This document shows, in pieces, positions 3,001 to 9,000 of a stretch of 34,228 bases of DNA (its first letter is position 1; the number at the start of each line of letters is the position of its first letter). The position numbers were made by a program. The stretch is from Candidatus Hydrogenedentota bacterium (GTDB lineage: Bacteria; Hydrogenedentota; Hydrogenedentia; Hydrogenedentales; GCA-2746185), in NCBI GenBank assembly GCA_046583315.1, contig JAYGCN010000214.1, forward strand, positions 1 through 34,228, read 5' to 3'.

Positions 3001-6000
3001 AATAGTCGCATGTAAGGATTCATGCAGGATCGTTTCCGCTAGCAACGCTTCAGCCAATTCCCCGCGCCCAAGCATCGTCGAAAAAATCGGATCCTTGAAC
3101 CAGCCCAGCGTCGAATACGCCGATGCCCCACGAACATGCACATCCCATCCCTCGCCGCGAAGCTTTTCGGCATGCGACTCGGCACGCTCCCGTTTGAACC
3201 AGCCCAAATAACTGAAGCTGCCTACAATCGGAAATTTCCAGGTCTTCGGCATCAAACTGAATTCGGGACACGCCGTCACTACCCACACCACCGCATCGCC
3301 ATCAACCGCTACATATTTCTCGTAACTCTTCGTCGCGTTGAGACCTTGCTTTTCCGCATAAGCCTTTATCGCAGGAACCTGTCGGAGCAGTTCAGTCGTT
3401 TCAGTCGATGTCTCTGGATCGGCAATCACCTTCGACAATGGTCGGGCAGAAGTTTGCACCTTCAACTGACCTGCACCCGCCTGTGATAGAAACGACACGG
3501 TTGTACACCCCGAAAGTGTTAGCGCCAGCATTCCCAAAAGCGCGCGCGTCAACAAACCCTAGGCCAATATGTCATGCACGACGCGCCCGTGCACATCCGT
3601 CAGTCGGAAATCACGACCCTGGAACCGGTGCGTGAAGCGTTTGTGGTCGATGCCGAGCTGGTGCAGCAGCGTTGCGTGAAAATCATGCACGTGCATCTTA
3701 TTCACTTCTGCCGCGTAGCCCAGTTCATCGGTCTCGCCATACGTAATGCCCGGTTTGATGCCCCCGCCAGCCATCCACAGCGAGAACCCCTTGATATGGT
3801 GATCACGCCCGTCGCCCTGCGCCATCGGCGTACGCCCGAACTCACCGCCCCAGATAACCAGCGTATCATCCAACATGCCGCGCTGTTTCAGGTCCATCAC
3901 CAACGCCGCCGAAGCCTGATCCACCAACTTACTCGCAATCTGAATATCCCCGCGCAATTTACTGTGATGATCCCAACCGCGGTGATACAACTGCGTGAAC
4001 CGTACTCCCCGTTCGGCCAAGCGGCGTGCCAACAAACAATTCGACGCGAAGGAACCATCCAAATTCCCGTCCACGCCATACATGTCAAGAATATGCTTAG
4101 GCTCCCCGGAGACATCCGTCAACTCCGGCACCGAAGTCTGCATTTTGAAGGCCATCTCGTATTGACTGATGCGGGTCGCGATTTCGGGGTCATCAACCAG
4201 CGTATCGAAGTCTGCGTTCAGTGACGCGATCGTATCGATTACATCGCGTTGACGTCTCGCATCAATCCCCTCAGGATTCCCGAGATACAATACGGGATCG
4301 CCAGAGGATTGGAACTGCACGCCCTGGTATTTGCTCGAAAGAAATCCCGCGTGCCACTGTCGTGCGGCAATCGGCTGACCCTGACCGCCCCCTTTCGACG
4401 TAAGCACGATGAATCCCGGCAAATTATCCGCGCCGTTTCCGAGTCCATAGGTCAGCCACGCGCCCATGCTGGGTCGTCCAGAAATCGAGGTCCCCGTATT
4501 CATAAACGTATGCGCGGGATCGTGATTAATCTGCTCGGTAATCATCGACCGAACAATGCAAATATCATCGGCAATCCGGTGTGTATGCGGCAAAATACTG
4601 CTGATTTCCTGACCCGACTGTCCATATTTCGCGAAGGGAAATACCGGACCCATGCAATTCAGTTTCGCCCCCTGCAACTGCGCGATGGGTTGGCCTTTGG
4701 TAAACGATTCCGGCATCGGTTTACCGTCCTGCTTCGCCAACTCCGGTTTATAATCAAAGGTCTCCAAGTGCGAAGGCCCCCCGGCCATATACAGGAAGAT
4801 TACGCGTTTGGCTTTCGGCGCAAAATGAAGCGGATTGATCGACCCGAAATTCACACCGGGTTGGGACGCCGCGAATGCACGATTGCCACCCAACATCGAT
4901 GTCAACGCAATCGCACCCAGTCCCTTCATCCCCTGTCCGAGAAACTCCCGGCGGGTCCGTTGCAATGCACTGTCATAAAAAGGATTCATCAACAACCGTC
5001 CTTACATTCGTGTAATCGTTTCATGCAGATTCAACAAAACGCGCGACACCGACGTCCACGCCGCAACATCCGCTGCGGCCAACGAGTCATCCGCAACGCG
5101 CTGCCCGATCTTCAGTAACTTTTTGGCATCATCTTCGTTCGCGCGATAATGCGCGAGATGCGCGGTGGCCAGTTTCGCCACGGCTTCCTGCTCATTCGGA
5201 TTCGGCATGCGCGCCAGAACCCGGCGATACGCGAACGCGATTTTTTCGTCAATCGATTTACCTCCGTCACGCACAATATCTTCTGCCAACGCTCGCGCCG
5301 CTTCTACATAGGTCGGATCATTTAACAACACCAGCGCCTGTTGCGGAATATTCGACACGACCCGTTCAGCCGTACATTCCTCGCGCGTCGGTGCATCAAA
5401 AGCCAACATGCTCGGCTGCAGAAATGACCGACGCCAAAAAACATACAACCCGCGACGATACTGTTTCTCTCCACTGTCTTCATGGTAAATTATTTTGTTG
5501 CCCACGCCCGCATAAGTGTCATCGTAATAACTCTCTGGCTGGTAGGGATAAACGCTCGGACCGCCGAGTTGATGCACCATAAGTCCGGTCGTCGCGAGAG
5601 CATTGTCCCGCACTTGTTCAGCTTCCAGACGCAACCGATTCTGATAGGCCAACAAACGGTTATAAGGGTCTATCGCCAGAGCAGCCGCATTCACTTGAGA
5701 AGACTGCGCGTAAGTATTCGACGTCACGATTAGTTGCACGACATGTTGCACATCCCAGCCGCTCTCCATAAATTCAACGGCCAGCCAATCCAATAACTCT
5801 GGATGACTCGGCCATTCGCCTTGTGCCCCGAAATCATCAAGCACTTTCGACAACCCCGTCCCGAAAAACTGTTTCCAGAGTCGATTCACATACACCCGAG
5901 CCGTAAGCGGATTTTGCTCACTCACGAACCATTCTGCCAAGTCCAGACGTGTCGCACGACCCTCCGTGTTCAGTACACCCAGACTGGATGGTATCGAGGG

Positions 6001-9000
6001 TTTCACCACCGGGCCCGAATGATCCAGCCAGTTTCCCCGCGGCAATATGCGTATCTCACGGGGTTTCACCGACTCCGATATTAACGTCGAAGGTATGCCT
6101 TCCGACGCACGCTTCTTGCGATTCTCCTCTGCCTTTAATTTACCTTCGTATCTCTTTTTCGCATCACTCATGTCTTCCGCGCGATTGATGAGACTCTTCA
6201 GTTCCTTGATTTCTTTATCAAACGCCGTGATTTCATCTTCCTGCTCAGGAGTCGTCAGCAACAAGAACGGGCCGTAACCATATTTCCCGTGTTCATACTT
6301 GCCGCGTTCCTTGAGGTCCGCGAAAAACGCCCCGAACTCATAAAAATTCGCTTGCGAGAAAGGATCGAATTTGTGGTCATGACATTCCGCACAACCCATC
6401 GTCGCACCCAGCCATACGGTCGATGTCGTCCGCACACGATCCGAAAAGTACTTCACAATATACTCGCCCGGCTGCACGCCGCCCTCCGACGAAATCTGGT
6501 TCAAACGGTTATACCCCGACGCGATGAGCTGGTCCCGCGTCGCGTTGGGCAACATATCCCCCGCAACTTGCTCAATCGTAAACTGATCAAAAGGCATGTT
6601 CTCATTAAACGCATCGATCACATAATCACGATACGGCCATACGCTGCGATATTCGTCCGAGTGATATCCGTTGGTATCCGCATACCGAACCAGATCCAGC
6701 CAATACGCCGCCATGCGCTCGCCGTAACGCTCCGACTTCAGGAGTTTATCAACCACTTTACGGAATGCGCGCTTACGACCGTCCTCCTTGAAAGACTCCA
6801 CACCCTCAAACGTCGTCGGCAATCCAGTCAAATCAAAGGTGACACGACGCAAAAGCGTTCGTTTGTCCGCAGGAGCCGCCGGTTGCAGCCCTTCGTCCTC
6901 AAGTCGCGCGAGAACAAAAGCATCAATCGGATTCGCAACCCACTTCTTGCCATTCACCTTAGGCACCGGACTGCGCTCAGGCACTATATACGCCCAATGC
7001 TTCTCGTACTCCGCCCCCTGTTCTATCCACTTCGCCAAAATCGCGCGGTCCATATCGGACAACGATCGCCCGCTGTCCCGCGGCGGCATTTCGTCCGTCA
7101 CATGATGCGAAAACACCCGCGCGATCAATGCACTCTCCGTAATGCTGCCTGGCTTCAGCACGGTTCTCCCGTCCCGATCCCGAATCGCATCCTCGCGCAC
7201 ATCCAGTCGCAATTTCGCCTGGCGCTTGTTCTTGTCAAAGCCGTGGCAAAGATAACAGCTATTGGAAAGAATCGGCCGTACATCGCGATTGAATTCGATC
7301 ACCTCTGGCACACCTTCGGATTCCACCTTCAGCGACGCCAGTTCCGCATGCACCCATTCCGGCGTCCGCGGAGCCTTCGCAGGAAAACCTTTCCAACCGT
7401 CGAAGCCTGCCCCGGCTTCAATCCAGCTACGAAGGGTCGCGATTTCGATACTTGTCAGACCATCCCCCTCAGGTGGCATACGATCCTCATCACCTTCCAG
7501 CAACGTGATTCGTTCCAGCAGGATACTCATCTCATCGCTGCTGTGTTCCAGCACCGGGAACCCCATCTCCTGGATAAACATGCCCGGATGATCAAGACGC
7601 AAATCCCCCTTCTGCTTGTCCTCACCGTGGCACTTGATGCACCGCAATTCCAGAATCGGCCAGACATCCGTTCGGAAATCCGCGGCACGCACCGATAGTG
7701 ATACGGCCAAAAGAAGAATCGAAAGAGGTATGCGCAACGCCATGATAAATTCCAGGTTGTTCGAAGGGTAACTCCTTACAGTATAGAGTGATTCGTGAAG
7801 GGTTGACAAGGCAAAGAGGCTTGAATTCACCTCATTATTCTGCCAAGGTAGTCCCTTACGCCAACGAAGGAGACGAATCATGATGGATCGCAGAAATTTT
7901 ATGGGCCTTGGCGCAGTAGCCGCAGGAGCAGCAACCTTGACACAACTCGACCGCACTGCCCACGCACAACATGGTGAACCCCGCGACCACTACGAACTTC
8001 GCCGCTACCACCTCGATACCGATGCCCAGCGAAAAGGCCTCCACACCTTCCTCAAGGACACGTTCATCCCCGCCTGCAACCGAAACGACATCCCCCAGGT
8101 CGGCGTTTTCGAAATCCGTAATGAAGACGGCCCCGTATTCGTGCTCATCCGCCATACTTCCGCCAGCTCCTTCACCACGGGCACCCGACGTTTACTCGCC
8201 GACGAGAAATTCCTCAAAGATGGCGATGCGTTTCTCAATACAGACGCCAAAAAAACCGCCTACTCCCGCATCGAGACCCAATTCATGATCTCCTTCGAAG
8301 GCATGACCGAGCTCGAACACCCCGTTACCGGCCCCGACCGCGTATTCGAACTGCGCAACTACCAAAGCCACAGCGTCGTCGCCGGTCAAAAGAAAATCGA
8401 AATGTTCAATTCCGGCGAGATCCAGATCATGCGTGACACCGGACTCGGCCCCGTCCTCTACGGCGAACACCTCAGCGGCCCCGACATGCCCAACCTCACC
8501 TACTTCCTGTCCTACGAAAACTTCCGGGCACGCGGCAAAGCATGGCAGACTTTCGGCAGCGATCCCGCGTGGAAAGAAATCAGCGGCAAACCCGAATACG
8601 CCAACGACAAAATCTTGTCCGACATCAGCAATATTTTCCTCGTGCCGACCAAATATTCACAGGTGTAGTCGCCCCAAAAAAGGTACAGTACCCCAACTGC
8701 GTCAAGCACCCGATTTCTGTCCTCGTACCCGAAATCAGGTAACTCCATGCCGCGCGTCAGTATCACCGTTTTCGCACCTTGATGTGTAATGGTTTTCTTC
8801 GTTTCGACTTACGCGACGCTCCAACGCGCATCAAATATGGCATGTACTTTGCTCCCATACTCCCAAAGACCGATTCACCTGCAACCGGCTCCATCGGAAG
8901 CAGGTCAAACTGATCGGATACTTAGGAGAATGCATTATGAGAACCCCGGCCCGAAAACGCTTCATTACCGCTCTGCTAATCCCATGTGCCTTCGCCGCCC

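Follow-up and report, generated by a model that had tools for sequence, protein, structure and literature searches.

The locus and its gene pair

The window analysed here, 34,228 nt of contig JAYGCN010000214.1 from a Candidatus Hydrogenedentota bacterium, carries two genes on the minus strand, 6 bp apart, for a DUF1501 protein (the small subunit) and for a larger protein in which a Sec-type signal precedes the PSCyt1, PSCyt2 and PSD1 domains (the big subunit). DUF1501 residues are numbered throughout on the 476-aa version that starts at ATG 4989.

3559..4995, minus strand: DUF1501 small-subunit gene (PF07394, E 3e-160; 478 aa from TTG, 476 aa from ATG 4989)
3799..3801, minus strand: His397 of DUF1501, predicted metal ligand (121/123 rows, 2 gaps)
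3832..3843, minus strand: E383-F-G-R386 of DUF1501, counterpart of sulfatase D-N-G and NPP D-H-G
3964..3972, minus strand: D340-x-H342 of DUF1501, predicted metal ligands (kept in 21/21 paralogues)
4522..4524, minus strand: His156 of DUF1501, at the alkaline-phosphatase (AlkP) nucleophile position (helix 113-122 of the model begins with it)
4768..4782, minus strand: GGPSH loop of DUF1501, behind the first core strand (E19-25 of the model)
4948..4953, minus strand: Tat twin arginines R13-R14 of DUF1501 (TRREFL, from sequence)
5002..7743, minus strand: big-subunit gene (913 aa from ATG 7743; two PSCyt1, PSCyt2, coiled-coil stalk, PSD1)
5173..5952, minus strand: PSD1 (DUF1553), part of the all-alpha core (E 4e-98)
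6091..6255, minus strand: coiled-coil stalk of the predicted model, bare in this copy
6310..6930, minus strand: PSCyt2 (DUF1549), part of the all-alpha core (E 2e-83)
6373..6393, minus strand: CxxCHxH haem motif of the core, inserted in comparison with DUF1800
7075..7257, minus strand: second PSCyt1 domain (CxxCH and distal Met-Pro-Pro)
7627..7641, minus strand: CxxCH of PSCyt1 domain 1 (this extra copy occurs in 23/108 aligned relatives)
7780..7809, minus strand: sigma-70-like promoter candidate upstream of the big gene (10/12 matches)

The promoter candidate is weak, because the region holds four such sites where 3.9 are expected by chance.

With its same-strand adjacency, a Tat signal on DUF1501, and CxxCH motifs and a Sec signal on the partner, the pair belongs to the DUF1501-PSCyt/PSD1 module of PVC bacteria. 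Passages of two earlier papers describe this module of DUF1501 with PSCyt1, PSCyt2 and PSD1 (Kamneva et al., 2012, PMC3542564; He et al., 2017, PMC5615132); the domains, adjacency, Tat signal and many copies are as here, and the same passages report carbohydrate-binding inserts, two- and four-gene versions and a suggested electron transfer. The pair is thus not new; its pairing, Tat signal, inserts and electron-transfer role were all in print in 2012. The passages say nothing of fold, active-site residues, complex or reaction. The copy studied here differs in its second PSCyt1 domain and its lack of an insert; it also comes from outside the three PVC phyla named in them, its closest matches being from Candidatus Hydrogenedentota.

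The small subunit: a phosphatase fold with an altered active site

By its predicted structure (pLDDT 94.1, pTM 0.93), DUF1501 is a protein of alkaline-phosphatase fold. All structural matches among the best 50 listed belong to the AlkP superfamily (VIA-align Z 14.6-19.2), as the first-pass annotation had also found; PafA and ENPP4/6 are nearest (Z 18-19), with PafA 5too at the top (Z 19.2, rmsd 4.0, 270 aligned). Profile alignment with sulfatases by hhalign gave P 95%, and the mixed beta-sheet core flanked by helices follows AlkP topology. The core fold, the position of the catalytic helix and an acidic ligand after a late core strand are shared with the AlkP hydrolases (PafA, ENPP/NPP, sulfatases, LtaS).

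The active site, however, is different. In known AlkP hydrolases the nucleophile is Ser, Thr or formylglycine (PMC3693508; PMC11677397), whereas in DUF1501 this column is occupied by His156, which aligns with the Cys of sulfatase CxPxR (P 95%) and the Thr of NPP-like proteins (overall P only 0.8%) and keeps the same register of 9 residues to the TG motif. His stands in this column in 122/123 and 103/103 homologue rows, and neither flank holds Ser, Thr or Cys in 111/123 rows; the site departs from the rule for AlkP phospho- and sulfo-hydrolases. The formylglycine-sulfatase motif C/S-x-P-x-R is absent from DUF1501, as noted before, with H-D-P-A-H in register. The second ligand of the AlkP D-N or D-H pair is replaced by Phe, so that the pair reads E-F: E383 is Glu in 123/123 rows, followed by Phe in 119/123 and Met in 4/123. 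The first-pass annotation had placed GGPSH at the nucleophile position. This does not hold; the loop (Gly in 118/123 rows, gaps in the remaining 5) sits after the first core strand and probably stands where AlkP enzymes have their first-strand Asp metal ligand. The strand ends in M-A-G-G, with Asp in 6/123 rows at one column, a placement taken from the model because the strand is unregistered in the profile alignments. In AlkP-superfamily hydrolases the second metal site is spaced D-x-x-x-H ... H; D340, H342 and H397 are invariant in DUF1501, but with the spacing D-x-H. G70, H156, D340, H342, E383, R386 and H397 are kept wherever a paralogue covers the column (21 rows), and K81 in 19/20, much as had been reported.

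The pair could be a phospho- or sulfo-ester hydrolase or transferase, as first proposed, with His156 acting as a phospho-His nucleophile or with a metal-activated water, and the haem subunit serving as redox gate or scaffold. The fold and its nearest relatives favour this, and the acidic and His ligands together with K81 and R386 would fit an oxyanion. The missing Ser, Thr or Cys and the Phe at the second ligand position argue against it, as does a chain of two or three haems, which hydrolysis does not need; nor do this genome's small subunits spare Met and Cys (median 4.0% versus 3.5% in long ORFs). With the genomic context and oxygen link discussed below, we regard the hydrolase reading as weakened and rather unlikely. 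Databases name some DUF1501 proteins 'sulfatase' or 'arylsulfatase A family'; because the nucleophile is missing, such sulfatase labels are doubtful.

The loss of the nucleophile would also fit a non-catalytic envelope module for electron transfer or redox sensing, with DUF1501 as a metal-binding pseudo-enzyme serving to anchor or tune the cytochrome. Four-gene versions of the module, which add PPC and WD40 interaction proteins, point the same way, and this reading is close to the membrane-targeted electron transport already proposed in a passage of Kamneva et al., 2012 (PMC3542564). However, seven active-site positions do not vary between subfamilies that share about 25% identity, nor between the three partner types, and a set of 20-70 paralogues that differ in their binding inserts and are mostly silent in standard medium is more what one expects of substrate-specific enzymes; we consider a non-catalytic role improbable.

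The big subunit: cytochrome domains and a core without known structure

The big subunit was also modelled well (pLDDT 93.9, pTM 0.90). It carries three CxxCH motifs in an exported protein, and the genome has two PF01578 genes for haem c assembly, features of a c-type cytochrome that predict haem attachment. The distal Met of the PSCyt1 domain is kept in 105/108 rows, and the second PSCyt1 domain is predicted to be a His/Met class I-like electron carrier. FoxE (E 1e-7; structure Z 8.2, rmsd 4.0, 109 aligned) and the C-terminal cytochrome domain of hydrazine synthase alpha (E 2e-6) match these N-terminal domains and leave the core uncovered. The PSCyt2/PSD1 core found no match in the PDB. Its CxxCH is present in 108/108 aligned relatives and in 19/19 paralogues of this genome; of the CxxCHxH that had been called invariant, the extra His is kept in 18/19 only. 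Between PSCyt2 and PSD1 the protein at 5002..7743 has a bare coiled-coil stalk and no insert; in paralogues the same interval holds PA14 (contig C10), Laminin_G_3 (C76, C123), NPCBM (C75) or unnamed domains, inserts that confirm the earlier list, to which we add F5/8 (C83).

Pairing and copy number

The gene pair is real and present in about 20 copies in this genome. Our recount of its 22 DUF1501 genes reproduced the earlier figures: 16 are same-strand direct neighbours of PSCyt2/PSD1, another 2 are set off from it by a PPC gene, 2 neighbour DUF1800, and the remaining 2 are fragments at contig ends. Among 80 related loci, 69 have an upstream partner; of the other 11, 5 have less than 4 kb of upstream DNA, 1 has its partner downstream, and in 5 no partner lies within about 7 kb. 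The DUF1501 count is within 1 of the PSD1 plus DUF1800 count in 44 of the 49 genomes counted in full (20 of which have none of the three), and every genome with PSD1 also has DUF1501. The Tat motif is found in 60/62 complete related small subunits and 0/62 big subunits. Identity matrices of 17 paralogous pairs correlate (rho 0.90, p 1e-4), but operon duplication alone would produce such co-divergence. Apparent fusions in databases proved to be frameshift artefacts, with an internal Tat signal retained or linkers out of frame.

Matched copy numbers, co-diverging paralogues and the division into Tat-exported small and Sec-exported big subunits make a two-subunit periplasmic enzyme plausible on genomic grounds. 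The 'obligate' heterodimer that had been proposed is too strong a term, because of the orphan DUF1501 loci and of Tuwongella, which has 73 DUF1501 rows against 49 PSD1 and 1 DUF1800 (73 to 50). In the Tuwongella proteome only 2/73 DUF1501 and 1/49 PSD1 proteins were detected in every replicate of a fraction, a pattern that inducible enzymes would show. Expressed DUF1800 and DUF1501 neighbours part in fractionation, the former spread evenly over S1-S3, the latter almost only in S3, a point against a two-subunit enzyme.

MauG, for methylamine dehydrogenase, and the formylglycine-generating enzyme, for sulfatases, are models for a dedicated modifying enzyme, and the big subunit could likewise be a maturase whose haem oxidatively builds a protein-derived cofactor at or near His156, after which the small subunit acts alone. 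The altered residue lies exactly where sulfatases bear their post-translationally oxidised residue, the link to O2 respiration would fit, and the Tuwongella excess and separation of small subunits, with the 5/80 loci lacking a partner within about 7 kb upstream, are in line with it. Yet one maturase would serve many clients, whereas nearly every small gene has its own co-diverging partner, and it is the big subunit that carries the sugar-binding inserts. Searches with the big subunit also gave no sequence or fold match to di-haem peroxidases (MauG/bCcP) among those listed, although the query was the entire 894-residue model, so that single domains may have been masked. A maturase seems to us a long shot.

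Around the pair, no third gene that would name a substrate is conserved across the 80 related loci, and a sulfatase is nearby at 7/80. The latter, like the sulfatases near PSCyt genes in lake Verrucomicrobia noted in a passage of He et al., 2017 (PMC5615132), favours a hydrolase, but no glycan or sulfatase context recurs.

Distribution and oxygen respiration

At least three PSD1 copies occur in 24/33 genomes with an O2-type haem-copper oxidase and in 0/28 without, and DUF1800 in 25/33 and 0/28, respectively, comparisons in which related genomes do not count as independent and aerobes stand apart in many other respects. The contrast persists inside one family (7/10 versus 0/9) and in a second phylum, Planctomycetota, where PSD1 at E<=1e-70 is found in 24/59 oxidase-positive and 0/32 oxidase-negative genomes. 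As controls, sulfatases are present in 61/61 genomes, with at least 20 in 14 of 28 oxidase-negative ones, and a cytochrome c assembly protein in 60/61. The association has exceptions on both sides: 11/28 oxidase-negative genomes keep 1-2 divergent PSD1 copies, and strong PSD1 copies are absent from 35/59 oxidase-positive Planctomycetota. Among the genomes sampled in two phyla, the expanded pair tracks O2 respiration and not sulfatase richness. True sulfatases are abundant in oxidase-negative genomes where the expanded pair is not found, a further point against a hydrolase. The module is enriched in oxic lake layers, according to a passage of He et al., 2017 (PMC5615132).

Related gene pairs

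DUF1800 is known to pair with DUF1501 (PMC5122149), and its small subunit has the same invariant site as here. The PSCyt2/PSD1 core appears to be homologous to DUF1800 and to PSD2-5. Its hhalign comparisons with DUF1800 gave P 60-90% (E 9e-5 and 2e-6), and among predicted viral structures DUF1800 was the only stand-out for the big core (TM 0.26/0.37, E 0.08). In these alignments the core CxxCHxH falls in a gap; DUF1800 partners have CxxCH in 0/30 proteins and no cytochrome domain, often with a Tat motif of their own. Since their DUF1501 keeps the same site, haem c would be dispensable in this branch, which is again in favour of a hydrolase and counts against a haem-linked oxidoreductase.

DUF1552 (HXXSHH) aligns with DUF1501 over its full length (P 77%, E 2e-5) and has His at the nucleophile place; its HxxSHH falls at D340-x-H342, and with H390 as counterpart of H397 all three ligand places are His, so that it differs from DUF1501 in the replacement of D340. 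Its PSD2-5/PSCyt3 partner has a PSD1-like segment (P 87%, 62 columns) and two CxxCH motifs. Support for this kinship is modest, because the profiles came from only 7 and 6 sequences.

A proposed mechanism

A redox enzyme is more likely than a hydrolase, because His replaces the nucleophile and because the multi-copy form, among the genomes sampled, was found only in those that respire O2. We give a probability of roughly 45% to the pair being a periplasmic haem-c/His-metal oxidoreductase, a two-subunit enzyme on a repurposed phosphatase scaffold. DUF1501 would fold in the cytoplasm, take up metal and exit by Tat. In the former AlkP site, free of a covalent nucleophile, His156 would join D340, H342, E383 and H397 in a His-rich metal site, and K81 and R386 would hold an anionic group of the substrate. 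The big subunit would exit by Sec and acquire c-type haems, and its all-alpha core would dock on DUF1501 so that the CxxCHxH haem lies near enough to the metal for electron transfer. From there, electrons could pass through the His/Met cytochrome domain(s) at the N-terminus into the aerobic chain; in an oxygenase variant these domains would instead supply electrons to an O2-activating site. The variable stalk domain, often sugar-binding, would pick the substrate, each paralogous pair oxidising a different imported organic compound and being made only when needed. The GG after strand 1, the E-F pair, the D-x-H spacing and the dedicated haem partner would set such an enzyme apart from the AlkP hydrolases.

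More tentatively, DUF1501/PSCyt2-PSD1, DUF1501/DUF1800 and DUF1552/PSD2-5 may be the three branches of a single, so far undescribed periplasmic redox-enzyme superfamily, with an AlkP scaffold, a His metal ligand in place of the nucleophile, an all-alpha partner of unsolved fold and c-type haem wiring to O2 respiration. To our knowledge, redox chemistry on the AlkP fold would be a first.

The pair is long known and, for PVC-like bacteria, one of the largest gene families still lacking an explanation. Our analysis links three orphan gene pairs, predicts a dependence on oxygen and names residues for mutation: H156, D340, H342, E383, H397, K81 and R386, and the core CxxCHxH. If the superfamily reading is true, the tens of copies per genome would give Planctomycetota, Verrucomicrobiota and neighbouring groups a major, so far overlooked way to oxidise dissolved organic compounds.

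Results

The two genes of the pair lie in the window as follows:

5002-7743, minus strand: big-subunit gene, 913 aa, with a Sec-type N-terminus, two PSCyt1 domains, PSCyt2 and PSD1
3559-4995, minus strand: DUF1501 (small-subunit) gene, 6 bp downstream of the big-subunit gene, with the twin-arginine motif TRREFL

Residues of the small protein are numbered from the Met at 4989, as in the first-pass annotation, and those of the big protein follow its structure model. The nearest relatives of both proteins are Candidatus Hydrogenedentota records, and the host probably belongs to this phylum. 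Our recount for the host genome gave the numbers reported at first: 22 DUF1501 genes, with 16 directly beside PSCyt2/PSD1, 2 separated from it by a PPC gene, 2 next to DUF1800 and 2 that are contig-end fragments. The PA14, NPCBM and two LamG inserts described in big-subunit paralogues were found again, together with an F5/8 insert; Pfam has no name for most of the inserts, and the big subunit of the window carries only a coiled-coil stalk at the insert site.

The structure model of DUF1501 (pLDDT 94.1, pTM 0.93) matched folds of the alkaline phosphatase (AlkP) superfamily only, as had been claimed, with Z scores of 19.2 for PafA, 18.4 for ENPP4 and ENPP6 and 15-18 for sulfatases (best Foldseek E value 2e-6). 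Public annotation already places DUF1501 in this superfamily, and we take it to be a member of the AlkP Pfam clan. A profile comparison with 34 sulfatases of the host genome (probability 95%, E 2e-8) put H156-D-P on the C-x-P of the sulfatase motif, and in two separate comparisons E383-F-G fell on the sulfatase D-N-G. Against 27 NPP-like proteins H156 fell on the Thr nucleophile, with the local register right at an overall probability of just 0.8%. H156 is the first residue of helix 113-122 in the model; the available excerpts of PMC3693508 and PMC11677397 place Ser, Thr or formylglycine at the start of the corresponding helix in the AlkP superfamily. The H156 column holds His in 122/123 and 103/103 rows of two alignments that share some rows, the nine-residue register from H156 to TG is kept in 116/122 and 101/103, and in 111 of 123 rows none of Ser, Thr and Cys flanks H156. 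The compact subfamily of contig C274 of the host genome (L096:5475-7388, minus strand; family at loci L111-L186) has a Ser at +1 from H156.

These results correct the first-pass annotation, which had named GGPSH as the nucleophile: the motif lies after strand 1, where it would take the place of the sulfatase Asp-Asp, and the nucleophile position is H156. Because of these two placements, the covalent nucleophile of AlkP enzymes is gone from DUF1501, and two ligands of the first metal have probably been lost as well. H156, D340, H342, E383, H397, K81 and R386 are fixed in the alignments and, clustered as the fold predicts, may form a rebuilt His-rich metal site. Despite its AlkP fold, DUF1501 came out negative in the tests for membership among the AlkP hydrolases. 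We regard an ester hydrolase working with a His nucleophile or a metal-bound water as unlikely.

In the big subunit (model pLDDT 93.9, pTM 0.90), PSCyt1 matched FoxE and a cytochrome domain of hydrazine synthase and has a distal Met in 105 of 108 rows. His/Met class I cytochromes are electron carriers, and by analogy PSCyt1 would be one too. The CxxCH of the core, the all-alpha PSCyt2/PSD1 part, is invariant (108/108 rows, 19/19 divergent paralogues); among these 19 paralogues no candidate for the sixth ligand of the core haem is universal, with H438 kept in 18, H628 in 16 and C771 in 7. Searched inside the whole big-subunit model, the core had no PDB match at E<=0.001, and VIA-align of that model listed matches to the coiled coil and FoxE only. 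That the big subunit acts as a haem maturase of the small subunit seems improbable to us. The compact C274 subfamily lacks an extra His after CxxCH (Ser in 44/49) and has a Cys 29 residues further on (45/49), a candidate alternative haem ligand. PSCyt1 domains are also found fused to the membrane domain DUF2231 (L097:900-2387, minus strand; L251:2454-3788, plus strand), through which the system might be connected to the electron pool of the membrane.

A partner lies upstream of DUF1501 at 69 of 80 related loci, and 5 of the 80 have none within about 7 kb upstream. The Tat signal is present in 60/62 small subunits and 0/62 big subunits. Copy numbers of DUF1501 and of PSD1 plus DUF1800 agree within one in 44 of 49 genomes with complete counts, 20 of which have none of the three families, and co-divergence of 17 paralogous pairs gave a rho of 0.90 (0.79 for the 13 closest). 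Adjacency, Tat split, copy-number match and co-divergence would also follow from an operon in one pathway. Inter-chain covariation over 76 natural pairs gave no signal (top z 10.2 vs 7.5-10.1 in three shuffles). In the available excerpts of the Tuwongella proteome (PMC8567305), 73 DUF1501 rows stand against 49 PSD1 and one DUF1800, with any signal for only 7 of the 73; expressed DUF1800/DUF1501 neighbours differ in fractionation, the neighbours of the two PSD1 proteins with sporadic detection were both seen as well, but in another fraction, and many soluble proteins end up in fraction S3. On the genomic evidence, it is likely that the subunits bind each other. Both domains occur in 63 of 102 long database proteins; we rejected these fusions as frameshift or gene-calling artefacts, since the junctions displayed have kept an internal twin-arginine signal, run through an out-of-frame linker or lie between domains that are truncated. 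Most of the fusions come from single-contig records.

Profile comparison of the core with DUF1800 gave probabilities of 60% and 90%, with the CxxCH segment in a gap, and CxxCH was found in none of 30 DUF1800 proteins. Among the control genomes, Caulobacter vibrioides alone has DUF1800 as well as DUF1501, as one pair. Among predicted viral structures a DUF1800 protein was the sole stand-out match to the core (TM 0.26/0.37, E 0.08), other rows reaching a TM of at most 0.11 by query length; it is encoded by an uncultured Caudovirales phage (BFVD entry A0A6J5M749). In 7-sequence and 6-sequence profiles, DUF1552 aligns with DUF1501 along its full length and has a His at the place of H156; the PSD2-5/PSCyt3 partner of DUF1552 shares a PSD1 segment. 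Because of these matches, the three orphan gene pairs (DUF1501/PSCyt2-PSD1, DUF1501/DUF1800 and DUF1552/PSD2-5) look like one superfamily with haem c in two branches.

Across 61 genomes of the host phylum, at least three PSD1 copies occur in 24/33 with an O2-type haem-copper oxidase and 0/28 without, a group that includes three genomes whose only matches are weak and NO-reductase-like; DUF1800 is present in 25/33 and 0/28, respectively. Eleven oxidase-negative genomes keep one or two divergent PSD1 copies. In a second sample, 91 genomes from the phylum to which a Pirellulaceae genome belongs, 24/59 oxidase-positive genomes carry strong PSD1 copies, against 0/32 without the oxidase. Neither control in the 61 genomes, sulfatases (61/61) or haem c assembly (60/61), was restricted like PSD1. 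Since the genomes compared are non-independent kin and per-genome gene counts are in part "at least" values, we take the link between PSD1 expansion and O2-type oxidase as an association. A role in sulfur starvation was rejected, as the host genome's small subunits show no Met or Cys sparing.

Weak-scoring single copies surviving in oxidase-negative genomes are probably of the four-gene type. Two loci of this type (DUF1501, PPC protein, PSCyt2/PSD1; L094:6320-7660 and L095:1-1275) are 80-83% identical, and its WD40-PSCyt1 gene was found on contig C216 of the host genome.

Neighbourhoods at the 80 related loci are mixed, with no conserved third gene; the commonest neighbours are Gfo/Idh/MocA (9), Zn-dehydrogenase (8) and sulfatase (7). 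In the window, a putative aminopeptidase (PF10023; 2548-3555, minus strand) begins 3 bp past the DUF1501 stop and may share its transcript, and a NIPSNAP gene with a Tat signal (7880-8668, plus strand) is divergent from the pair; both are absent from the recurring neighbour clusters listed for the 80 loci. A second NIPSNAP gene lies between DUF1501 and PSCyt2 genes on contig C25 (L093:1585-2049, minus strand). At Poribacteria loci L007, L009, L011 and L013, unrelated small genes, one encoding an aspartyl-protease-like protein, separate the big and small genes by 0.5-2.9 kb. Elsewhere in the window, a frameshift or assembly error has divided DUF6206 between two frames that overlap (1529-1999 and 1842-2495, plus strand; profile positions 1-108 and 124-271), and an ORF at 17960-18559 (minus strand) stops inside an AhpC/TSA (redoxin) domain, covering profile positions 4-35 only; either a selenocysteine codon or a break might explain this stop.

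Discussion

The gene system is of a known, unexplained kind. The module was described by Kamneva et al., 2012 (PMC3542564), whose available text covers the Tat signal, the carbohydrate-binding inserts and a version with four genes; membrane-targeted electron transfer was suggested there, with the function left unclear. He et al., 2017 (PMC5615132), in the parts available, pair PSCyt2 with DUF1501 and PSCyt3 with DUF1552 and note an enrichment in the oxic layers of lakes as well as sulfatases in the vicinity, and the DUF1800-DUF1501 operon already appears in the accessible text of PMC5122149. Excerpts of PMC2754498, PMC12981691, PMC7563939, PMC3597751, PMC4982196, PMC11495043 and PMC5888151 give no function for the families, and a literature search covering few subscription papers returned no structure, complex or activity for them. 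The ESM Atlas gave no usable match for either protein beyond its own family, and NCBIfam nothing above cut-off except Tat signals. What is new here is the correction of the active site, the link between the three branches and the association with oxygen.

Of the four readings that we weighed, a redox module without catalysis has a small chance of being right. We consider it most likely, at a probability of roughly 0.45, that the pair is a haem-c/His-metal oxidoreductase of the periplasm, whose cytochromes form a relay to aerobic respiration and whose substrate-binding domain is swappable. In such an oxidoreductase the swappable domain would bind the substrate, and the relay would carry electrons from the enzyme into aerobic respiration.
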